A stretch of 64,000 bases of DNA from the NCBI GenBank assembly GCA_038208905.1, contig JBBQYG010000002.1, positions 3,626-67,625 of the forward strand. Reading direction: 5' to 3'. Below the pieces are notes generated by a model, which was given only the letters and a program-made list of their open reading frames with translations, ran no database searches and had not been told where the DNA came from. Of the stretch, positions 8,067 through 24,337 are shown in pieces. Position 1 is the stretch's first letter, and each line of letters begins with the position of its first letter. Origin of the DNA: Candidatus Sumerlaeia bacterium (lineage in GTDB: Bacteria; Sumerlaeota; Sumerlaeia; SLMS01). The position numbers and the translations under genes were made by a program.

Positions 8067-8663
8067 TCGTCGGCCATCTCCCGGCGCCTGTCGTGCGGCC
8101 GAGGGTTCGAGCCTCGCCGAGAGGATCGTTCGGTTCTCGCCGAGAACAGCCACCAGCCACACAGGCGCCGGATTCACCCCGCCAGCCGCACCTCATCGCT
8201 AACTTTTGAGCCTCCAAGACTGAGCACCGCGGCGGTATAGCCACTGGTTTCTATACATCGGGAGCAGATGGCGGCGCCAGCGGTTGCAGGGCAGTCGAAC
8301 TTGACTTTCCATTGGTATAGGCGATGATGCGAATGTTCGGAGGCGGAACGGAAAATGCCTTCAGCTTCCGACGCTTGGTTGACGAATCAAAAGGCAGTCC
8401 GGTAGTGCCGGGCGGCTGGCTGACGAGTAGGCCTGCGAGATTTCGCACTTCTCAGTGACGAGCTCGAGACTTTATTCCCAACCACCGGATCGGATTATTC
8501 CATTGAGCGCCCCGATTTACTCACACTTCATTCTCTTCCTCGCTCCGAATCCCGACTTCCAATTCGCGCTTTCTGGCACATGGGGAGTGCTCGAAAGTGC
8601 GCTATTCCACGATGTTACTGTGCCCCTGTTCGCCAAGGATGCGGAGCGCTTGGGGATGCTGCT

Positions 8664-9863
8664 GTGAAAGCCATCGGCCCGCGAATCCTGACGATCAATG
8701 GCGGCTCCTCGAGCATCAAGTTTGCTCTTTTCGAAGCCGGTGATTCGCTCCCGCTCATTTTGAAGGGCGGCATTGATGGCATCGGATCGCCGGATGCCAC
8801 CCTGCGGGTGGAAGGATCTCACAGTTTCTCGCGGCTGATTTCGTCTCCCGGTCGCGCCGGGGCGGTGGAGGCCTTGATGGACTGGCTCGAAGAGTTCAAC
8901 GGAAGCGAGCCGTTCGACGCGGTGGGACATCGTGTAGTCCACGGTGGGCCAAGGTATTGGGAGCCACGGCGTATCAACGCCGAATTGATTGGCGAATTGC
9001 AGCGACTCAGCCCATTTGACGCCGACCATCTGCCGGAGGAAATCCGGCTGACTCAGGCGTTTCATCGCCGGTTTCCCGACCTCCCCCAGATCGCCTGCTT
9101 CGATACGGCCTTTCACCATGACCTGCCGCGCGTGGCGCAGTTGCTGCCCATCCCACGCCGATTCGAATCGCAGGGGGTGCGGCGCTATGGGTTCCACGGA
9201 TTGTCATACGAATTTCTCATGTTGGAACTCGCCCGCCTAGCGGGCGGGGATGCGGCGCATGGACGCATCATCCTCGCCCATCTCGGCAGCGGAGCGAGCC
9301 TGGCGGCGGTGCGAGACGGCGAGCCTGTGGACACCAGCATGAGCTTCACCCCGACGAGCGGAGTGCCGATGGGAACCCGTTCCGGAGACCTCGATCCGGG
9401 ACTCTTTTGGTATCTATCGCGCACCCAGAAGATGAGCCCCTGGCAGTTCCACGAGATGGTCGATTCCGGATCCGGGTTGCTTGGCATGTCGGAAACCAGC
9501 TCGGACATGCGCGATCTGCTCGCCTGCGAATCGCATGACGTGCGCGCAGCCGAGGCGGTCGCCCTGTTTTGCTATCAAATCAAGAAGTGGATCGGCGCGT
9601 ATGCGGCGGCGCTAGGCGGACTCGACACGCTGGTATTTGCCGGCGGAATCGGGGAGAACGCCCCCGTCATCCGTGCACGGATTTGCGAGGGGCTGGAGTT
9701 TCTTGGAGTCGAACTCGAAGAGGAATCAAATGCTACGGGCGTGCCCGTCATCTCCTCGGCGGTCAGCCGTGTTGTGGTGCGGGTTGTCCCGACAGATGAG
9801 CAGTGGATGATCGCAAACAAAGTGTGTCGGGTCTTGGAACTTGGTCAGAAACGGGAGGATTGA
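8664..9863 (+). CDS. ackA: Acetate kinase
   Basis: [17 protein letters not shown] (ATP-binding N-term), [64 protein letters not shown]. All are hallmark acetate/propionate kinase motifs. Probable GTG start at 8664 with GGGGA RBS; six-frame ORF begins earlier at 8580. Confidence 0.85.
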
Positions 9864-9865
9864 GC

Positions 9866-12232
9866 ATGGAGATGCCTACACTTTCTCCGGAAGTGCTCGA
9901 CGCCATCGATGCCTATTGGCGCGCCGCCAACTACCTGTCGGTAGGCCAGCTTTACCTCCGCGACAATCCGCTGCTGAGACGCCCTCTGGCAGCGACCGAC
10001 ATTAAGCACCTGCTGCTCGGCCACTGGGGCACGACGCCGGGCCAGAATTTCATTTATGTCCACCTAAACCGGGTCATCAAGAAGTTCGATCTGAACATGA
10101 TCTACGTGGCGGGCCCCGGTCACGGCGGCCCAGCCCTCGTCGGTAACACCTACCTTGAGGGAACTTACAGCGAGGTATATCCCCACATCAGCCGGGATGA
10201 GGCGGGGCTGCAAAAGCTGTTTAAGCAGTTCTCCTTTCCCGGCGGAATACCCAGCCACGTATCGCCGGAGTGCCCTGGCTCGATCCACGAGGGTGGTGAA
10301 TTGGGATACTCGCTCAGCCACTCGTTCGGCGCGGTGTTCGATAATCCCGATCTCGTCGTGGCCTGCGTGATTGGCGATGGGGAGGCCGAAACCGGACCGC
10401 TCGCCACGTCGTGGCATTCCAACAAATTCCTCAACCCCATCTCAGACGGTGTTGTGTTGCCGATTCTACATCTGAACGGTTACAAGATCGCCAATCCGAC
10501 GATCTTCGCGCGGATCGAGCCTGAGGAGCTAGACCAGTTGCTGCGCGGCTATGGTTGGAAGCCCTACTACGTTGAGGGCCACGAGCCCGGGCTGATGCAC
10601 GAGGCTATGGCTACCACGCTCGATGCAGTAATGGAGGAGATCAAGCGCATCCAGCACGAAGCGCGCGTCAACGGCAACACCATGCGCCCGCGCTGGCCGA
10701 TGATCGTGCTCAAGTCACCGAAAGGCTGGACGGGCGTGAAATGGGTGGACGGCCTCCAAATCGAGGGCACGTTCCGCGCGCACCAAGTGCCGCTCTCCGG
10801 TCCGCGGGAGAATCCCGAACATCTCAGGTTGCTTGAGGAGTGGATGCGCAGCTACCGCCCGGAAGAACTCTTCGACGAGCAGGGGCAGTTGATGCCGGAA
10901 CTGGCGGATCTGGCACCCGAGGGCGAACGCCGCATGGGCGCGAATCCCCATGCCAACGGCGGCCTACTGCTGCGCGACCTCATCATGCCGGACTTTCGAG
11001 ACTACGCGGTGGACGTGCCGTTCCCCGGCGCCGTGGAGGCTTCCGACGCGCATGAGCTGGGCGTGTTCCTGCGTGACGTGACCAAGCTAAACCAGGAACA
11101 CCGCAATTTCCGCATCTTTGGCCCCGACGAAACGCTTTCCAATCGCCTGAACGCAGTCTTCGAGGTGACGGATCGACAGTGGGACGCACGCATCCAGGAT
11201 GACGACGAGTTCCTCGCCTTGGAAGGTCGCGTCATGGAAATGTTGAGCGAGCACCAATGCGAAGGCTGGCTCGAAGGATACTTGCTGACCGGTCGCCACG
11301 GGCTTTTCAATAGCTACGAAGCATTCATTCACATCGTTGACTCGATGTTCAACCAGCATGCCAAGTGGCTGAAGGTCACGGCAGGACTGCCGTGGAGGCG
11401 GGAGATCGCGTCGCTGAACTACCTGCTGGCTTCCCATGTCTGGCAACAGATGCACAACGGTCTGACACATCAGGACCCAGGCTTTATCGATATCGTCGCG
11501 AACAAGAAGGCCTCCGTCGTGCGGGTCTATCTGGCTCCGGATGCAAATTGCCTGCTCTCGATCTGGGATCATTGTTTGCGCAGCCGCCACTACGTCAACG
11601 TCGTGATTGCTGGCAAATATATGGCGCCGCAGTGGCTGACGATGGACGCCGCGGTGAAGCATTGCTCCGAGGGAATCGGCATCTGGCAGTGGGCGAGCAG
11701 TGACCAAGGCGGCGAGCCCGATGTCGTCATGGCCTGCTGTGGCGATGTGCCCACCCTTGAGACCATGGCCGCCGTCTCCATCATGCGCAAGCATCTCCCC
11801 GACCTAAAAGTCCGTGTCGTCAACGTCGTTGATCTGATGAAACTGCAACCGCAGAGCGAGCATCCGCACGGTCTGAGCGATCAGGTCTTCGACGCACTTT
11901 TCACCAAGGACAAGCATGTGATCTTCGCCTTCCACGGCTATCCTTGGCTGATTCACCGTCTCACATACCGGCGGACCAACCATCACAACATTCACGTTCG
12001 CGGCTACAAGGAGGAGGGCACAATCACGACCCCATTTGACATGACAGTCCTGAATCAGCTCGACCGCTTCCATTTGGTGATGGACACGATCGATCGCCTG
12101 CCTCAGACGGGCGAAAGGGGCATCCAGCTGAAAAGCGGGCTCCAGAATAAGCTCGTTGAACACAAACGCTTCATCGACGAGCATGGCTTGGATATGCCGG
12201 AGATACGCAATTGGAAGTGGAGTAGCTCATAA
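9866..12232 (+). CDS. xfp: Xylulose-5-phosphate/fructose-6-phosphate phosphoketolase
   Basis: ~790 aa; [91 protein letters not shown] are classic Xfp signatures. ATG 3 nt after ackA stop with GGGAGGA RBS inside ackA 3' end. Confidence 0.9.
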
Positions 12233-12382: not shown

Positions 12383-13926
12383 ATGAATAGAATCCAGAAA
12401 TTCTGGAACGATCTGCGATCCAACTTCTGGTTCGTTCCTTCGATCATCGTCCTGGTCAGTATTGCTCTTGCGGCGGTTCTGATTGGCGCAGACTCCACGG
12501 CCAGCCGACAATGGCTCGGTCAATGGCCGCGGCTGTTTGGGTCGGGGGCCGAGGGCGCTCGCGGAATGATGTCAACGATTGCGGGCTCGATGATGACCGT
12601 GGTGGGCGTTTCGTTCTCCATGATCCTGATGGTTCTGGCATTGGCTTCCACCCAATATACCTCACGTGTTCTGCGGAATTTCATGCGTAGCCGCGAAACG
12701 CAGGTCGTGCTCGGGATATTCGCCGGCATCTTCACCTATAGTCTAATCGTTCTGCGCTCGATTCGCAGCGGCGACGAGGGCGCGTTTGTTCCAAGCCTGG
12801 CGGTCTTTTTTGGCTTCGTACTGGCGCTCGGTGGGGTGGGAACCCTCATCTTCTTTATCCATCACATTGCCTCTTCGATTCAGGCTTCCAGCATCATCGC
12901 GTCAGTTGCCTACGAAACCATGGCAGCCATGGACCGCCTGTTTCCTGAAAAGCTTGGACAGGAACCGGAAGTGGAGTTGGACGATTCCATCATTCACCCG
13001 CTTGGCGAGCGGAGTTGGCACCCCATCCTGTCTGCTCGCAACGGGTACATTCTAAACGTGGACACCGATGCGCTCCTGTCCGTGGCGCGCGAACAAAAGA
13101 CAATCGTGCGAATGGAACGTGGCATCGGCCAGTTCACTGTTCAGAACACCGTCCTTTTCTCTCTCGCGATGGAAGAGCCGCCGAACAATAAGACGATCAA
13201 AGCCCTGCTGGCGGCCTTCGACATCAGCAGCCACCGCACGATCGAGCAGGACATAGAATTTGGCATTCGACAAATCGTTGATATCGCGATGAGGGCCCTA
13301 TCGCCCGGGGTCAACGACACCACGACGGCCGTAATGTGCGTCGACTACTTGACGGCGATCATGGCGCGCCTTGCGCCGCGACCCATGCCATCATTGCACC
13401 GCCACGAGGATGGACATTTGCGGGTGATCGCCAAGGCCCTGAGTTATGACGGATTGTTGGCAGAAGCGTTTGACCAGATTCGCAGCAACTCCAAGGGCAA
13501 TGTTGCCGTCATGCGGCGAATGCTCGGAGGTCTTCAAACCGTCGCCGCCCTAACGGCCAGGCCGGACCGGCGTCGAGCGATTAGCCAACAAGTGCGGTGG
13601 ATCGCCGATATCGCCGATCGCACGCTCGACTATGCTCAGGACCGCGCGGAGATCAACACCGCCTTGGAGTCCGTGCGCGAAATGCTGGAATTCGATCCTA
13701 TCGGGGAGCATGAGAACGACATGGAAGTCTTGCCGCTGATTCGCGAGTGGAGCGATAAACGGCCCGCGGAGCCATGCACACGCGAAACCGGCATCGAGGC
13801 CATGAGGCGACGGGCAATCGATCGATGGGAAAACGAAGGCGGAGTGATCCTGCCGCCCGAGCCCGGTGAACCGCGAGGCGGCGCGCGAGTCTCAGATTCG
13901 GTCGCAGCCCGGGGGTACCTGACGCC

Positions 13927-13930
<4 letters not shown>
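12383..13930 (+). CDS. DUF2254-family integral membrane protein
   Basis: 515 aa; N-terminal multi-TM region (FWFVPSIIVLVSIALAAVLIG...MMTVVGVSFSMILMVLALASTQYTSRVLRNF) then a large soluble domain. Pattern recalled as DUF2254. 4-bp ATGA overlap with the downstream gene. Confidence 0.45.
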
Positions 13931-16561
<2,631 letters not shown>

Positions 16562-16569
<8 letters not shown>

Positions 16570-16900
16570 CAAACCGAGCATAAAGGGAGTCGGCGATAAG
16601 GATGAATTCAGGCGCGAGGTTGCGGCAAAGACGAGACGTAAACTGAGGGCGCGCCGAAATCCCGGGTCGGGGGTGTGGTTTGGCTTGGGGATGATGGGGC
16701 TGATCGGTTGGTCGATTGTCGTTCCGACCCTCCTGGGAACGGCGCTCGGCATCTGGTTGGACAAGCGCCATACGGGAAGCCATTCCTGGACGCTGATGCT
16801 TCTCATGATCGGCCTGGTGCTCGGCTGTCTGAATGCCTGGCATTGGGTTTCAGACCAGGACAGATCGATGAGGGAAAACGAGGAGAACGACGATGAATGA
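16562..16900 (+). CDS. atpQ: N-ATPase AtpQ (AtpZ/AtpI-like small membrane protein, PF09527-like)
   Basis: 112 aa, two TM helices (GVWFGLGMMGLIGWSIVVPTLLGTALGIWLD; WTLMLLMIGLVLGCLNAWHW). Position between atpC and atpR as in N-ATPase operons. Confidence 0.55.
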
Positions 16901-17207
16901 GATGATAGGCTTACTGCTGTCGCTCGTGGCTGGGCTGTCGCTTGGAGCCCTCTTCTTCGGCGGGCTTTGGTGGGCCACTCGCAGGGCAATGCTATCAAGC
17001 CAACCGGTCTATTGGTTTCTCGGCAGCATGTTGCTGCGGTCGAGCATCGTCCTTGCCGGTTTCTATTTCGTCGCCCAGGGACAGTGGCATCGGCTGATCC
17101 CTTGTCTTCTCGGCTTTGTGGCGGCCCGGATCCTAGTGGTGCGGCTGACGAAGCCGCGGAGGGAACTGTCTGCTGGTCCAGAGGAGGTGCCCATCCATGC
17201 GCCTTAG
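16893..17207 (+). CDS. atpR: N-ATPase AtpR subunit (small membrane protein with conserved Arg)
   Basis: 104 aa; two TM helices with intramembrane arginines (GLWWATRRAML; VAARILVVRL). Operon position immediately upstream of the a subunit. Confidence 0.55.
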   Translation: MNEMIGLLLSLVAGLSLGALFFGGLWWATRRAMLSSQPVYWFLGSMLLRSSIVLAGFYFVAQGQWHRLIPCLLGFVAARILVVRLTKPRRELSAGPEEVPIHAP

Positions 17208-17919
17208 TCCTGACGAAATTGTATACTGGCAGTATGGATACTTCAAACTCAACGCCACGCTCGTGTTCACGTGGGGGCTGATGCTGTTGCTCGCCGTCGG
17301 CTCGAAGGTCATTACGAGAAAACTCTCGGTCGATCTGGATCGCTCGCGCTGGCAGAACTTTGTGGAGATCATTGTTTTGGGAATCATGAAGCAAATCGAG
17401 GAGGTTGGTTTGGCCAACCCGAGGAAATATCTGGCATTTCTGGGCACGCTCTTTCTGTTCATCGCCATGGCTAGTCTCTGCACGATCATTCCCGGGTATG
17501 AGACACCGACCGGTTCTCTGTCCACCACCATTGCGCTCGCTCTCTGCGTGTTCGTCGCTGTGCCACTCTTCGGCATCGAGGATCAAGGATTGATTGACTA
17601 CCTAAAGTCCTACCTGAAGCCGACCTACATCATGCTCCCCTTCAATGTCATCAGCGAGTTATCTCGTACGCTGGCTCTGGCCGTCCGCCTGTTTGGCAAT
17701 ATGATGAGCGGCGCGATGATCGTCGCGATCCTCGTCACCATCACGCCGCTCATCTTTCCGATCGTCATGACGCTACTCGGGCTTTTGACCGGTATGGTGC
17801 AGGCCTATATCTTCACCATTCTAGCCGCCGTCTATATCGCGGCCGCGATGCACGTGCGCGGCGCGGCGGGCGACGCGAAGGAATCGCAATCCAACCAGAC
17901 CGCCGCGGTCGGAAAGTGA
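17197..17919 (+). CDS. atpB: ATP synthase F0 subunit a
   Basis: 240 aa polytopic protein with the invariant a-subunit arginine in ALAVRLFGNMMSG. Confidence 0.8.
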   Translation: MRLSPDEIVYWQYGYFKLNATLVFTWGLMLLLAVGSKVITRKLSVDLDRSRWQNFVEIIVLGIMKQIEEVGLANPRKYLAFLGTLFLFIAMASLCTIIPGYETPTGSLSTTIALALCVFVAVPLFGIEDQGLIDYLKSYLKPTYIMLPFNVISELSRTLALAVRLFGNMMSGAMIVAILVTITPLIFPIVMTLLGLLTGMVQAYIFTILAAVYIAAAMHVRGAAGDAKESQSNQTAAVGK

Positions 17920-18617
17920 GGAACGGGATGCTTCACCGGGAAAAGCATCGGACGGACCGCATCGGCTGGCTGCCTGCGACCGTTCTCGGCGCAAACGACG
18001 GTGTCGTTTCGACCGCCAGTCTAATCGTCGGCGTCGCGGCAGCCCATGCCACCAGCGCCCAAATCCTTATAGCTGGCGCGACAGGATTGGTCGCCGGAAC
18101 CATGTCGATGGCGGCTGGAGAATACGTTTCGGTCAGTTCCCAGGCGGATACCGAGGCGGTGGATATTGCCATCGAAGAGGGGGAAATCGCGGCCGACCCG
18201 GGGAGAGAATTGATCGAGTTGGCGAGGATATGTGAGTCGCGTGGACTTGATCCCGCCCTTGCGACACAGGCAGCCGAGCAACTTACCGCCAGGGACGCGC
18301 TCGGTGCCCACGCCCGCGACGAACTCGGCATATTCTACGCCCTGAGAGCCAAACCCGTGCAGGCGGCGTTTGCTTCGTCGGGCTCATTGGCCGTGGGCGC
18401 CGCCATGCCACTGTTGACGGTAGTCGTTTCTGCCGAGCGCTACCTGATCCTGCTGGTTTCCAAATTCTCTCTGCTTCTCCTTGCGCTACTGGGCGGCGCG
18501 GCCGCGTTCGCCGGGGGCGCCAGTGCGAGGAAAGGGGCTCTGAGCGTCACTCTATGGGGCGCTTTCGCGATGGTTATCACCGCCGCCGTCGGAACTCTAT
18601 TTGGAGCCGTGCGATGA
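17916..18617 (+). CDS. VIT1/CCC1-family (Fe2+/Mn2+) transporter embedded in the ATPase operon
   Basis: LGANDGVVSTASLIVGVAAA, MSMAAGEYVSVSSQ, acidic cytoplasmic stretch EAVDIAIEEGEIAADPGRELIELARICESRGLDPALATQAAEQL, then three C-terminal TM helices. This is the full VIT1 topology with no N-terminal ferritin domain. GTG at 17916 overlaps the atpB stop; alternative ATG at 17928. Confidence 0.7.
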   Translation: MRNGMLHREKHRTDRIGWLPATVLGANDGVVSTASLIVGVAAAHATSAQILIAGATGLVAGTMSMAAGEYVSVSSQADTEAVDIAIEEGEIAADPGRELIELARICESRGLDPALATQAAEQLTARDALGAHARDELGIFYALRAKPVQAAFASSGSLAVGAAMPLLTVVVSAERYLILLVSKFSLLLLALLGGAAAFAGGASARKGALSVTLWGAFAMVITAAVGTLFGAVR

Positions 18618-18705
18618 CGCAATTTGACTGCGAGCTTGACGTGAAGGCCAGGGGCATTACGGCAACTCCCATGACCTGCCGCATCCAATCAACAGACCAA
18701 AGGAG

Positions 18706-18993
18706 ATGGACATGGACAGCATGACAATCATTGCGGTGGCATCAATCGTCATCGCGGGAATCACCACCGGATTTGGCACAATGGGTCCCGCGCTGGCCGA
18801 GGGAAAAGCCGTCGCTACGGCCCTGACTTCGCTGGCCGAGCAACCCGATGCCTCCGCCACAATCACCAGAACGCTGTTCGTTGGGTTGGCGATGATCGAA
18901 TCGACCGCCATCTATTGCTTCGTGGTTTCGATGATCCTCATCTTCGCCAATCCATTCTGGAACCACGTCATCGCCCAGGCGGCGGGAAAGTAA
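18706..18993 (+). CDS. atpE: ATP synthase F0 subunit c (Na+-type motif)
   Basis: 95 aa hairpin protein; TM2 carries ESTAIY, matching the E-S-T-x-x-Y Na+-ligand set of Ilyobacter/Propionigenium c subunits (ESTGIY, from memory). TM1 contains an extra Glu (ALAEGKAV). AGGAG RBS. Confidence 0.8.
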   Translation: MDMDSMTIIAVASIVIAGITTGFGTMGPALAEGKAVATALTSLAEQPDASATITRTLFVGLAMIESTAIYCFVVSMILIFANPFWNHVIAQAAGK

Positions 18994-18996
18994 CCC

Positions 18997-19806
18997 ATGC
19001 TGATCGATTGGTTCACCGTCGGCGCGCAACTGCTGAACTTTCTCATCCTTGTCTGGCTGATGAGGCGGTTTCTCTATAAGCCGATCCTCCGCGCCATCGA
19101 TGAGCGCGAGAAGCGAATCGCCTCTCAACTTTCTGACGCCGACGCCAAACGGGCGGAAGCGAAAAAGGGGCGCGATGAATTCCAGGCCAAGAACGAGGAA
19201 TTCGACCGACAGCGTGCGGCGATGCTGAGCCAAGCGGCCGACGAGGCGAAGAAGGAGCGTCAGCGCCTTCTCGACGAGGCGCGATCCGCCGCCGACGCCC
19301 TGAGTGCGAAACGACAGGAATCGACGCGAACCGAGGAGCAGAGTTTGCGCTCGGCAATCGCCCGGCGGACTCAGGAGGAAGTATTCGCGATCGCGCGAAG
19401 GGCGCTGAAGGATCTCTCCGGGACTAGCCTCGAGGATCGCATGGGAGAAGTCTTTACCCAACGCGTGCGAGAGATGGACGGCCAGCCGAAATCAGATCTC
19501 GCCACGGCCCTGAGGACGGTCTCCGGCGCCGCGATTGTGCGAACCGCTTTTGACTTGCCGACGGAGCAAAGGGCAACAATTCAACGTGCGCTCAACGAAA
19601 CTTTCTCGTCCGATATTCCCCTTCGCTTTGAAACGGCGCCGGATATTATCGGAGGAATCGAGCTCATCGCGAACGGTCAAAAGGTTGCCTGGAGTATCGC
19701 GGAATACCTCGCGTCGCTGGAAAGCAGTATCGAAGAACTCCTCAACAAGAAGGACAAGCCAGAGGCTAAAATGGAAAAGCCAGGCCCGGAAGCAAAGAGC
19801 CAATGA
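18997..19806 (+). CDS. atpF: ATP synthase F0 subunit b with delta-like C-terminal region
   Basis: 269 aa; N-terminal TM ([11 protein letters not shown]), long charged coiled coil, C-terminus [22 protein letters not shown] resembling the delta/OSCP C-terminus. No separate atpH is present, as in N-ATPases. Confidence 0.7.
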
Positions 19807-21356
19807 ACGGAGAGCCTGAAAGCCTGCGGAAGGTCTTCGACGGCGCCTTTGCCCGTGTGACCGAGGCGAGGGAAGCGTTCTCGCCGACACTGACACCGCG
19901 CGAAGTGGGTGTGATCGCGAGTGTCTCAACCGGCATTGCCATCGTCACGGGATTGCCCGGCGTGAGCTATGATGAAGTGCTCACGTTCCCCGGCGGCGTA
20001 CCCGGCATCGCCTTCAACGTGGACGAGGAAGAAGTGGGCGTTGTTCTGCTCCGCGCCTATTGGCACCTGAAGGCTGGCGATGAAGTGCAGCGCACGGGAC
20101 GCGTCATGGAGGTGGGAGTGGGTGACGGATTGCTGGGTCGCGTCCTCGACCCACTTGGTCAGCCGCTCGATGGCAACGGACCCTTGACCTTCAGCGGGCG
20201 ACTGCCGGTTGAGCGCCCCGCACCGCCGATCATGGATCGCGCGCCCGTTACCGTTCCGCTTCAGACCGGACTCAAGGTCGTCGATGCGCTCATTCCCGTG
20301 GGGCGAGGCCAGCGCGAATTGATTCTGGGCGACCGCCAGACAGGCAAAACTGCTGTCGCGATCGACACCATCCTCAATCAGAAGAACCACAATGTGGTTT
20401 GCGTCTATTGCGCCATCGGGCAGCGCGCGTCGGCGGTTGCCAAGACGGTGGCAAGCATGAGGGAGCGGGGCGCGATGGAATACACCGTTGTCGTGGTGGC
20501 AGAAGGCGACGCCCCGCCTGGTCTCTCCTACATCGCTCCCTATGCGGCCACGAGCATCGCCGAATCCTTCATGGAAGCGGGGAGGGATGTGCTGATCGTT
20601 TACGACGATCTGACGCATCATGCCCGCGCCTATCGCGAACTCTCGCTTCTGCTCCGCCGGCCCCCCGGTCGCGAGGCGTTTCCCGGCGACATCTTCTACA
20701 TCCACTCTCGCCTGCTTGAGCGGGCGACGCATCTGCGCAAGGAACTCGGCGGCGGGTCACTCTCCGCGCTCCCCATCATCGAGACGGAAGCCCAAAACCT
20801 TTCGGCCTATATTCCCACGAACCTGATTTCCATAACGGATGGACAGATATATCTGTCTCCCGCGCTGTTTGAGCTTGGCGTCCTGCCCGCCGTCGATGTC
20901 GCCAAATCGGTCTCGCGCGTCGGCGGGAAAGCCCAGAGGCCTGCCTACAGGGCGGTAACGGGCGACCTTAAGCTCGCCTACTCGCAGTTCGAGGAGCTCG
21001 AAACCTTCTCCCGCTTCGGAGCCCGGCTGGACGAGAGCACGCGCAAAATTATCGATCATGGGCGACGTATTCGAGCCTGCCTCAAGCAGCCCGAATTCAC
21101 CCCCGTTCCCGTTATGGGGCAAATTGCCATTCTGTTGGCACTGAGCGAGGGTCTCTTCGACCAAGTACCGATCGAGAAGATGACGGACGCCGAAACTGCC
21201 GTGCAGGATGCGGCGGATAAGATCCCCGCGGAGGTCAGCGAGCGACTGGATACCGCCGACAAGTTGAGCGATCAGGATCGCGAGGCGATCCTCCAGATTG
21301 TCCGCACCGCCCTCCTTCCGTTCCAGCAAAAACCTGAACCGGACAAGAAGCCGTGA
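19803..21356 (+). CDS. atpA: ATP synthase F1 alpha subunit
   Basis: [20 protein letters not shown]-loop; full alpha-subunit length (517 aa). Confidence 0.9.
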
Positions 21357-22246
21357 GCGACACCTCCGCAAGCCTGCGCAGGAAAATCGACAGCGCGACA
21401 GATCTCCAATCTGTGGTGCGAACGATGAGGGCTCTCGCAGCCTCCAGCATCACACAATACGAACAATCGGTGCGCTCCCTGACCGAGTACTATCGCATTG
21501 TGGAGCTTGGGCTGGGTGCCTGCCTTCGGGAACGCGGCACGATGACCTTGCTTGCAAAGAAGAAGAATACGGCAAGGGTCGCTGCAATTACCGCGGTGGT
21601 GTTCGGATCAGACCAGGGACTTGTTGGTCAGTTCAATGATGAGGTAGTCGATTTCGCCTCGCAGACACTCGCGTCCCTGCCGGCAAAACCGGAAATCTGG
21701 GCCGTGGGCGAACGCGTTCAAGCCTCGCTGGCCGACGCGGGATTTCCTACACGGGGGCTCTTCGCGGTGCCCGGATCCGCGAAGGCGATCACGCCACTCA
21801 TCGGACGGATTCTCGTGGAGAGCGCGTCGGGTTCCGCACACACAATACATGGTGAATTCCACCTCTTCTATAATCGTCCCAAAACCGGCGCCGCCTATGC
21901 CCCTGTTCATCAGCGTCTGTTGCCGCTCGACGAAAGCTGGCGCAGCAGACTGGCCGCGATCCCCTGGCCGAATGGGAACAAGCCCCAAATCAGGGAGGAT
22001 CACAACGGGACCTTGAGGGCGCTCGTGCGTGAGTACCTCTTCGTCTCCCTTTTTCGCGCTTGCGCCGAATCCCTTGCGAGCGAGAACGCGAGTCGCCTTG
22101 CTGCAATGCAGCGCGCCGACAAAAACATCGACGATCTGCTCGAGGAACTTAATAGCACCTTTCATCGCTTGCGCCAGGACGGTATCGACGCGGAGCTCTT
22201 CGATGTCATTTCCGGCTTTGTTGCGTTGAGCGGGAAAAAGAAGTGA
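21353..22246 (+). CDS. atpG: ATP synthase F1 gamma subunit
   Basis: 297 aa; N-terminal helix [26 protein letters not shown] and C-terminal helix typical of gamma. Last gene of the operon. Confidence 0.75.
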
Positions 22247-22531
22247 CTTCAATCCTTCGATTGGCTATGCTCCTGAGCCACGCGCTGGGGGGGCGATTCC
22301 TGAATCTCAGCGAAGGCACTTGCCAGGCGCATTGCCAAAGTAATCTCCAAGCGATACTTTCATTACATACCAATATGGAACCGCCGCCGCCACCTCGCAG
22401 AATGAAGAGCGCCGGATTCGGCTAGGCTTGCGGGGCTCCAAGGCGAACCGTATCCGTCCCGCCCCGACCATGTTGACTTGGGCCCCCTGTGCTGCTCGAC
22501 TGCCGCTTTTCCATCTTGCTGGGGAGAGCGG

Positions 22532-22992
22532 TCATGGGCACGAAGCGGGAATCCGTGTCGGCGGAGCGGGGTATTATCGTTGAGCGGTTCGAGGCGAGCG
22601 GGCTTTCAATGGCGGAGTTTTGCCGGCGGGAGGGGATAGCGTATTCGCAGTTCATGTCCCGGAGGAAGCGGCTTTCGTCCCCGGGTGAATCAGTCGGCGG
22701 CTTTGCGGAGCTGGTGCTGGCGCCGGGGGGCGGGTCGCCCGCGGAAGCGGCGCTCGTGGATCGCCACATCCGGGTCAACGGGGTCGCCCCCGGCCCCATT
22801 TGGACTCCCTTCATTCCAGCCATGGGCAGGGCACCGGATGACGTTGCCGCCCACGGCGACTCCTCGCCAATGAAACGCGCAGGCCAGCCCACCGAATGCG
22901 CCTCCGCCTTCGTGTTCCTCGCGTCGCTGGACAGTACCTCCATGACCGGTCAGGGACTCCACCCCAACGGCGGGGCGATCGTGAACGGCTGA
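22532..22992 (+). pseudogene. Chimeric remnant: IS66-family TnpA (orfA) N-terminal fragment fused in frame to the C-terminal ~85 aa of an SDR (YghA/YdaD general-stress dehydrogenase-like)
   Basis: N-part RESVSAERGIIVERFEASGLSMAEFCRREGIAYSQFMSRRKRL is the HTH of IS66 orfA-type proteins. From ...VDRHIRVNGVAPGPIWTPF...PMKRAGQPTECASAFVFLASLDSTSMTGQGLHPNGGAIVNG it is the conserved SDR C-terminus. No Rossmann TGxxxGxG N-terminus, no orfB/orfC. Confidence 0.6.
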
Positions 22993-24246: not shown

Positions 24247-24337
24247 TGGCGGACAGGGAGAGATTCGAACTCTCGGTGGGGGTTTAGCCCACACACGCGT
24301 TCCAGGCGTGCGCCTTAAACCACTCGGCCACCTGTCC
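24247..24337 (-). tRNA. tRNA-Ser (anticodon GGA), with encoded CCA
   Basis: Reverse complement reads GGACAGGTGGCCGAGTGGTTTAAGGCGCACGCCTGGAACGCGTG...GAGAGTTCGAATCTCTCCCTGTCCGCCA: 7-bp acceptor, D-arm, anticodon loop CUGGAAC, long variable arm (type II), T-arm GTTCGAATC. Confidence 0.85.

Follow-up and report, generated by a model that had tools for sequence, protein, structure and literature searches.

A VIT1/CCC1-family metal transporter gene at the a-c junction of a bacterial N-ATPase operon

Results

An N-ATPase Operon with One Additional Gene

We analysed a 64,000-nucleotide stretch of DNA (the window) from contig JBBQYG010000002.1 of a Candidatus Sumerlaeia bacterium (assembly GCA_038208905.1). 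At positions 14715-22246 (+) it contains a complete N-ATPase operon, in which ten genes lie head to tail in the order atpD-C-Q-R-B-[VIT1]-E-F-A-G. The operon belongs to the N-ATPase family and the additional gene, by its sequence, to the VIT1/CCC1 family of metal transporters; what appears to be new is their combination, which is absent from the literature that we searched. The features of the operon are as follows.

14715-16190 (+): atpD, N-ATPase beta subunit; TIGR03305 (alt_F1F0_F1_bet), 880 bits against a cut-off of 752
16162-16569 (+): atpC, epsilon subunit; TIGR03166 and NF004871, over cut-off
16562-16900 (+): atpQ (gene 1), small membrane protein; PF09527, E 5e-17; TIGR02230, 131 bits
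16893-17207 (+): atpR, N-ATPase hallmark membrane protein; PF12966, E 1.8e-27; TIGR03165, 101 bits
17197-17919 (+): atpB, a subunit; TIGR03306 (altF1_A), 375 bits against a cut-off of 302, residues 3-218
17928-18617 (+): predicted VIT1/CCC1-family transporter, 229 amino acids; PF01988, E 2.2e-54; 6IU3, E 1e-14
18618-18711 (+): VIT1-atpE spacer, with AAGGAG at 18700-18705; terminator scan, folding (z +0.35) and Rfam all blank
18712-18993 (+): atpE, c subunit, with the two-carboxylate motif E...ESTAIY; another ATG at 18706; TIGR03322, 164 bits against a cut-off of 131
18997-19806 (+): atpF, b subunit whose C-terminal part is delta-like (OSCP); TIGR03321, 324 bits; PF00430 and PF00213 (residues 179-244)
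19803-21356 (+): atpA, alpha subunit; TIGR03324, 902 bits against a cut-off of 750
21353-22246 (+): atpG, gamma subunit; TIGR03323, 389 bits against a cut-off of 282

The beta, epsilon, a, c and b as well as the alpha and gamma subunits all scored above the curated cut-offs of the NCBI "alternate F1F0 ATPase" models, i.e., they passed models specific for the N-type (TIGR03305, 03166, 03306, 03322, 03321, 03324 and 03323) and not just generic F-type ones. As in the canonical N-ATPase operon atpDCQRBEFAG (PMC2881411), the same nine genes occur in the same order, with atpQ (PF09527) and atpR (PF12966) between atpC and atpB. There is no separate delta gene, the b subunit has a delta-like C-terminus, and the c subunit carries two glutamates and the ESTxxY motif. 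As described for the canonical operon, the block also has the look of lateral acquisition; in the window, a tRNA-Ser gene is found 2 kb downstream. The difference is that the window adds VIT1 between atpB and atpE. A preliminary description of this DNA had read the locus as the canonical N-ATPase order plus one extra gene, a view borne out by these Pfam and NCBI model matches. The junctions between genes are mostly overlaps or a 3-nucleotide gap, the exceptions being the two that flank VIT1. To our knowledge, an N-ATPase always accompanies a canonical F- or A-type enzyme, being the second rotary ATPase that a genome encodes.

On the opposite strand, a 436-residue open reading frame (16276-17586, -) runs antisense to atpC-atpB, facing genes with strong family matches; most likely it is an artefact that stems from high G+C content.

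The Embedded Gene Has the Sequence Features of a Complete VIT1/CCC1 Transporter

The reading frame of the additional gene is uninterrupted from 17916 to 18617 (+). Its product matched the Pfam VIT family (PF01988) over profile positions 3-214 of 214, with a score of 185 bits against a cut-off of 28.1 (E 2.2e-54). It also aligned with the structure of Eucalyptus VIT1 (EgVIT1; 6IU3_A, E 1.1e-14), query residues 3-216 matching residues 2-217 of the chain, which comprise transmembrane helices TM1-TM5. The preliminary description had called the gene a complete VIT1/CCC1 transporter between the a and c genes, and the two full-length matches agree with this; the motifs to which it drew attention (LGANDG, MAAGEYVSVSSQ and an acidic helical stretch) were all found. 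A search of NCBIfam with the VIT1 protein matched no model. Hydropathy analysis gave about five hydrophobic segments (residues 19-44, 44-64, 147-170, 165-201 and 203-229). The predicted helices are compatible with five transmembrane segments plus a cytoplasmic helical domain between TM2 and TM3, although the three-dimensional model from which they derive is of low confidence. That model, obtained with AlphaFold2 from a 23-sequence alignment, had a predicted local distance difference test score (pLDDT) of 52 and a predicted template modelling score (pTM) of 0.32. It was too poor for a fold search, and the protein is assigned to the family by its sequence matches to Pfam and the PDB.

To place functional residues, we used the roles and numbering given for EgVIT1 (PMC7714665) and the 6IU3 alignment. 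D43 and M80 of the translocation path are conserved in the window protein, the glycines at the kinks (G44, G69 and G76) are kept too, and the positions of the metal-binding-domain residues E102, E105, E113, E116 and E153 are all occupied by glutamate. P48 is replaced by threonine and M149 by histidine; P48 is absent from groups I-IV of the VIT family (PMC7714665). Bacterial VIT1 proteins of 229 residues are very numerous and come from many phyla; the window protein shares 56-74% identity with them. By homology, the gene would encode an ordinary bacterial divalent-metal exporter of the VIT1/CCC1 type, for Fe2+ and possibly Mn2+.

The Start Codon of VIT1 and the Signals around It

The VIT1 open reading frame opens at a GTG (17916; 233 residues), which overlaps the atpB stop codon (TGA, 17917-17919), and the next in-frame ATG is at 17928 (229 residues). 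ATG 17928 is the likely start rather than GTG 17916, because a GAGGA Shine-Dalgarno sequence (17918-17922, +) that overlaps the atpB stop codon ends 5 bases before it, because 229 residues is the modal length of the homologues, and because the public NCBI gene call carries exactly that product. With this start, the gap between the atpB stop codon and VIT1 is 8 nucleotides and the spacer between VIT1 and atpE (ATG 18712) is 94 nucleotides. The preliminary description had argued for co-translation on the grounds that the VIT1 start overlaps the atpB stop. The overlap disappears with the likelier ATG; translational coupling survives to the extent that it would still be compatible with a gap of 8 nucleotides.

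A scan for promoters and terminators, which assumes sigma-70-type signals and may not be valid for this phylum, returned three promoter-like and seven terminator-like sites, at or below the expectation from shuffled sequence. None bracketed VIT1, i.e., there was no promoter and terminator pair that would isolate it transcriptionally. An Rfam scan of the operon, metal riboswitches included, gave just two chance-level hits and no family, and folding of the VIT1-atpE spacer revealed no unusual structure relative to shuffled sequence (z +0.35). Because the flanking gaps are only 8 and 94 nucleotides and no promoter, terminator or RNA element was found around VIT1, we infer that it is most likely co-transcribed with the N-ATPase genes.

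The a-VIT1-c Arrangement Recurs in a Small Minority of N-ATPase Operons

We examined the genomic context of twelve relatives (below, L numbers denote loci and P numbers VIT1 homologue proteins). The order a-VIT1-c was found at L001, which comes from the same population as the window (VIT1 97% identical); at L002, L003 and L167-169 (VIT1 73-74% identical); and at L172 and L173 (VIT1 69% identical). VIT1 was stand-alone in the cases of P0012, P0015, P0017, P0037 and P0050 (68-72% identical). At least four diverged lineages of operons, all from metagenomes, have the arrangement.

Its frequency was estimated from the nearest relatives, the scans of genomes and of metagenomes each covering the best 80 of the loci listed. 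Among the best 80 VIT1 loci of species-representative genomes (56-68% identity), none had an N-ATPase gene in the fetched flanks. Among the best 80 metagenome loci (a subunit 73-82% identical), 77 had both atpB and atpE, and VIT1 was at the a-c junction in none of them; in all 77 of these VIT1-less loci listed, the a-c gap was at most 103 nucleotides. In a 200-sequence neighbour-joining tree of VIT1, the embedded VIT1s (7/7) fell into one 20-member cluster, together with two stand-alone genes. Stand-alone VIT1s were nested among embedded ones, and the embedded proteins are 60-72% identical to the ubiquitous stand-alone VIT1s. Just five clade-typical residues separate embedded from stand-alone VIT1s, none of them at a known functional position, and on these grounds neofunctionalisation of the embedded proteins was dismissed.

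The arrangement is real and recurrent, yet few N-ATPase operons have it, and the VIT1s concerned make up just a small subclade. A synteny survey, as suggested in the preliminary description, finds recurrence in several lineages; with none among the 77 best a-subunit loci listed, the insertion is not widespread, and public annotation labels the gene just "VIT family protein", not a known accessory subunit.

VIT1 Behaves as a Cassette That Is Younger than Some of Its Host Operons

Trees of the operons were built by neighbour joining from concatenated ATPase proteins, with 200 bootstraps. The VIT1-bearing operons were monophyletic in 0/200 bootstraps: L172 grouped with the VIT1-less L103 (bootstrap 100%), L167 with the VIT1-less L117 and L087 (98%), and L002 lay within a VIT1-less clade (80%). 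The VIT1 and ATPase trees were incongruent.

Pairs of VIT1-bearing and VIT1-less operons are 95-97% identical in nucleotide sequence over the last part of atpB, as far as the codons that specify "...RK(P)". Past this point, the VIT1-bearing sequence has a segment of about 60 nucleotides and then VIT1, and homology resumes just before the atpE ribosome-binding site. The same breakpoint and the same upstream segment occur in L002, L003, L167 and L172. VIT1-less operons have in common an atpB tail ending KPKPEPEAKH-stop and a 31-nucleotide spacer; because deletion of VIT1 could not recreate this tail and spacer, the VIT1-less state is ancestral.

Synonymous divergence (dS) among L002, L003 and L167 (group B) was 0.22-0.34 for VIT1 versus 0.62-0.84 for the ATPase genes. 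In comparisons with L172, which was analysed alongside, it was 0.57-0.63 versus 0.92-1.06, and across group B and L172 the bootstrap intervals for VIT1 and the ATPase genes did not overlap. In the same operons the G+C content of third codon positions (GC3) was 0.57-0.63 in VIT1 versus 0.70-0.82 in neighbouring genes. By these measures, VIT1 in group B and L172 is younger than the operons that carry it. The simplest reading is that one insertion allele arose and later passed from one related operon to another, with atpB and atpE as the sites of homologous recombination.

The junctions fall into three types, represented by the window, by group B and L172, and by L173. In the window, the gap is 8 nucleotides, the atpB stop codon (TGA, 17917-17919) lies within the VIT1 ribosome-binding region, and the a subunit ends in a 22-residue tail that is not conserved in relatives; in L173, the atpB tail is intact and the spacer is 71 nucleotides. 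Because synonymous sites between the window, group B and L173 lineages are saturated (dS >1.3) and the VIT1 clade is weakly supported, the junction types may go back either to one insertion of ancient date or to several independent captures. Before the VIT1 start, a short GAAAGTGAG segment is common to the window and group B, with a related form in other embedded copies. The stand-alone gene for P0012 (L164, 7637-8723) has upstream of it the longer segment of group B, GAAGAAGAAAGTGAG, with a related GAAAGTGAG core inside that segment. It also keeps the "EEESE..." coding segment that constitutes the extended atpB tail in group B, and a DDE transposase gene lies nearby. P0012 could be either an escape from the operon or a donor form.

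Between lineages, the ratio of nonsynonymous to synonymous divergence (dN/dS) was 0.11-0.17 for VIT1. This falls within the range of the ATPase genes (0.01-0.31); VIT1 is therefore maintained, being under purifying selection in most lineages.

Discussion

A Probable Cargo Exporter in the Operon of Its Possible Energy Source

N-ATPases have been proposed to be ATP-driven pumps rather than ATP synthases (PMC2881411; PMC5376962). In assays, VIT1 proteins have proved to be Fe2+/H+ antiporters that remove metal from the cytosol, EgVIT1 being H+-coupled and reliant on the V-ATPase (PMC7714665). In the window, the c subunit carries the two-carboxylate motif E...ESTxxY, which was taken as Na+ binding by Dibrova et al. 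(PMC2881411); in the proton-selective c ring of Burkholderia, Thr62 and Met63 follow the ion-binding Glu61. We also considered whether the presence of VIT1 tracks the ion motif of the c subunit, and this was ruled out, since EST, ESI and ESV variants all occur both with and without VIT1.

The reading that we favour, with a probability of about 0.6, is that the embedded VIT1 is a co-expressed cargo gene for an Fe2+/Mn2+ exporter, captured in the N-ATPase operon and possibly powered by the gradient of the pump, and is not a subunit of it. VIT1 would have been captured at the a-c junction; it would share a transcript with the pump genes but have a ribosome-binding site of its own, translation starting 8 nucleotides past atpB. 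The product would be a separate dimeric antiporter in the same membrane as the N-ATPase. The latter, driven by ATP, would expel H+ or Na+ (the motif being of the Na+ type), and the resulting gradient and membrane potential would drive the export of cytoplasmic metal by VIT1. With VIT1 in the pump operon, the exporter would be made together with its gradient source and could be useful without respiration. Were the rotor of the Na+ type, as its motif suggests, coupling to VIT1 would be indirect, or else VIT1 would need to accept Na+. By analogy with vacuolar systems, energetic coupling of the pump gradient to Fe2+/Mn2+ export is plausible; we infer the substrate and direction of transport from the VIT1 sequence, and energetic coupling would be the presumed selective reason for the arrangement. 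The link between VIT1 and the N-ATPase appears conditional rather than structural, in that the cassette is found in few lineages, moves by recombination, is absent from the closest relatives and, in the window population, evolves under relaxed constraint.

Several observations weigh against this interpretation. If the pump is Na+-coupled, any coupling to an H+ antiporter would be indirect, via the membrane potential or Na+/H+ exchange. The position of EgVIT1 E72, which is implicated in proton movement (PMC7714665), is glycine in the window protein; a glutamate is present in its MAAGEY motif. The clade that joins the embedded VIT1s in the neighbour-joining tree has a bootstrap of just 15%, the operons are known from sequence alone, and their rarity and patchiness would fit a neutral passenger equally well. 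In addition, the window copy itself may be losing function, although its reading frame is intact. Between the window and L001, the numbers of nonsynonymous and synonymous changes were 8:1 in VIT1 versus 8:22 elsewhere in the operon (Fisher p = 0.0015). Five changes private to the window protein (R16P, A78V, Y102C, V115A and F154L) affect columns that are 96-100% invariant in 198 relatives, whereas sisters in the same 90% cluster keep the consensus; within the cluster, amino-acid divergence was 2.2-4.8% in VIT1 versus 0-0.4% in atpA.

These changes could be due to relaxed constraint, adaptation or assembly noise. That they mark a gene on its way to inactivation, with function already impaired and the association in this genome a relic, is a possibility that we regard as less likely than not. 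VIT1 contains neither a frameshift nor a stop codon, its key metal-path residues are intact, and errors in a metagenome-assembled consensus or adaptive change could account for the pattern; even if correct, this idea would be compatible with a cargo exporter in the lineage as a whole. Relaxed constraint in the window population would also be expected of a neutral hitch-hiker, i.e., a functionally unrelated VIT1 sitting in a permissive spot of a recombining, laterally mobile operon and kept by linkage. Such an origin fits the rare and patchy occurrence of the arrangement and the finding that the clade-typical differences between embedded and stand-alone VIT1s include no known functional position. 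These operons also tolerate other insertions, with HPF and baeRF genes between atpA and atpG (L133, L135, L167 and L173) and insertions reported in cyanobacterial N-ATPase operons (PMC2881411). However, deeply diverged operons (dS >1) have VIT1 at this one junction in no fewer than three junction types, and several distinct operon backbones have received the cassette. Because of this spread to the same site, and because purifying selection (omega 0.11-0.17) argues that VIT1 is used and its position favoured, we consider a neutral passenger the less likely explanation.

The preliminary description had also raised the idea of an unrecognised accessory subunit, and had spoken of VIT1 as stoichiometrically co-regulated with the rotor. 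The gene does lie exactly between those for a and c, and atp operons offer a precedent in small membrane proteins with a link to divalent cations (the name of PF09527; AtpZ/AtpI of alkaliphilic Bacillus). A true subunit or assembly factor of the membrane sector might touch the a subunit or the c ring, serving for example in ion gating or metal delivery. Against this, the closest relatives of the same enzyme lack VIT1 while being 95-97% identical in nucleotide sequence up to the breakpoint, and three VIT1-bearing operons group with VIT1-less ones at 80-100% bootstrap. Nor does VIT1 co-evolve with the ATPase genes, its dS in group B and L172 being about half of theirs or less, its GC3 there different and its tree incongruent. 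Its 60-72% identity to ubiquitous stand-alone VIT1s, some nested in the embedded clade, and the lack of correlation with the c-subunit ion motif also speak against a subunit, which we regard as very improbable; such close N-ATPase relatives without VIT1 likewise leave stoichiometric co-regulation unsupported. A more ambitious version of the cargo-exporter account, which we put forward only tentatively, is that the N-ATPase and VIT1 constitute a selected two-part, ATP-powered module for Fe/Mn detoxification and thereby a bacterial equivalent of the V-ATPase/CCC1 pair of vacuoles, VIT1 having been recruited to the a-c junction more than once and passed between operons for the advantage of co-expression. 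The conditions for such a module would likely be energy-limited, metal-rich and probably anoxic, with respiration unable to supply the gradient.

Relation to Known Systems

A close parallel is the pairing of V-ATPase and VIT1/CCC1 in plant and yeast vacuoles (PMC7714665; 6IU3), in which an ATP-driven rotary pump is likewise combined with a metal/H+ antiporter of the VIT1 family, with D43, M80 and the metal-binding-domain glutamates conserved. The vacuolar pair differs in being organellar and encoded by unlinked genes, whereas the window has a single bacterial operon, so far represented by its DNA sequence only. Its pump is F-like (N-type) and probably Na+-coupled, and E72 and P48 of EgVIT1 are not conserved.

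In the alkaliphile Bacillus pseudofirmus OF4, AtpZ and AtpI of the atp operon have been implicated in Mg2+ uptake, which is reflected in the name of PF09527. Like VIT1 here, they are divalent-cation-linked membrane proteins encoded in an atp operon; unlike VIT1, which is a full transporter at the a-c junction of few lineages, they are unrelated small proteins, encoded at the operon start and widely conserved. MbfA is an inner-membrane VIT1-domain protein that exports cytoplasmic iron, has an N-terminal ferritin-like (erythrin) domain and is encoded by a stand-alone, iron-regulated gene. The window VIT1, by contrast, is of the short, 229-residue form without an extra domain, and is encoded within an ATPase operon. 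PMC7714665 and PMC7762939 cite MbfA, from Bradyrhizobium and Agrobacterium, as a bacterial VIT1-family iron exporter.

Dibrova, Galperin and Mulkidjanian (2010; PMC2881411) mentioned one- and two-gene insertions only in cyanobacterial N-ATPase operons. The 2025 GTDB survey ProAD (PMC11738941) gives the N-ATPase a strict order, beta-epsilon-X-X-a-c-(b-delta)-alpha-gamma, and transporter insertions are unmentioned there. Neither the N-ATPase papers nor ProAD mention a VIT1 insertion, and our literature searches found no paper joining VIT1 with "ATP synthase operon" or N-ATPase with "vacuolar iron transporter". The statement in the preliminary description that no N-ATPase or F-ATPase operon with an embedded metal transporter was known to have been described is consistent with this, as nothing in the literature searched links N-ATPase operons and VIT1. 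A search of the literature on hypoxia-induced N-ATPase in Burkholderia gave nothing usable, and that argument was dropped.

The physiological role of N-ATPases is largely guesswork, with salt extrusion in one cyanobacterium and acid survival proposed for Burkholderia. That a metal exporter has repeatedly been kept and passed around in their operons is a hint at this role. Together with hibernation-factor cargo and with phosphoketolase and acetate kinase genes upstream (see below), VIT1 suggests a pump that energises the membrane from substrate-level ATP in stress or dormancy. Such a pump could power secondary exporters, giving a testable pairing of ATP, pump, gradient and Fe2+/Mn2+ efflux, and if the two-part module were real it would provide a concrete physiological job for these poorly understood enzymes. 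In addition, the cassette offers a clean example, from nature, of how recombination spreads a cargo gene between homologous operons. Our picture of the subunit composition of the N-ATPase is unchanged by the finding.

Genomic Setting and Other Cargo Genes

For the pyruvate kinase encoded in the window, the nearest named relatives were consistently from Candidatus Sumerlaeota (47-63% identity), a phylum to which the source therefore probably belongs. Upstream of the operon in the window are four genes identified with Pfam:

8580-9863 (+): acetate kinase
9803-12232 (+): phosphoketolase
12383-13930 (+): DUF2254 membrane protein
13927-14718 (+): HAD/PMM-like hydrolase, ending 4 nucleotides into atpD

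Subsets of these four are also present at L097, L101, L103, L113, L118, L125, L135, L142, L147, L148, L155 and L168, and many related N-ATPase loci, whether they contain VIT1 or lack it, have the genes for phosphoketolase, DUF2254 and HAD beside them, which suggests that the upstream genes and the operon form a larger conserved module.

Downstream of the operon are a remnant of a short-chain dehydrogenase/reductase gene, a gene for a DUF892 protein and the tRNA-Ser. The open reading frame at 22489-22992, after atpG, matches only positions 161-234 of 236 (the last 74 or so) of adh_short_C2 and looks like a short-chain dehydrogenase gene remnant. Colinearity between the window and L001 ends from about position 22825. 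The tRNA-Ser(GGA) gene (24247-24337, -) follows atpG at a distance of about 2 kb and could be the boundary of a block, acquired laterally, that contains the operon.

Cargo also occurs between atpA and atpG, at the following positions:

L133, 8834-10410: gene of about 385 codons beside a ribosome-hibernation factor gene (Ribosomal_S30AE)
L135, 9486-11056: the same pair
L167, 7810-9362: the same pair
L173, 9520-9891: hibernation factor alone

The assignments were made with Pfam for L167 (baeRF and S30AE) and L173 (S30AE), and by N-terminal sequence resemblance for L133 and L135. The hibernation-factor cargo hints at a role of these operons in stress or dormancy.

A SpoIIAA-like gene (PF11964) directly precedes both the N-ATPase operon of L173 (2333-2722) and the stand-alone gene for P0050 (L174, 5629-5991), which may be a coincidence. 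At L167 (4851-6074), L168 (9021-10124) and L137 (7727-8212), the b subunit has a repetitive, Lys/Pro/Glu-rich C-terminal extension with a match to DUF2934.

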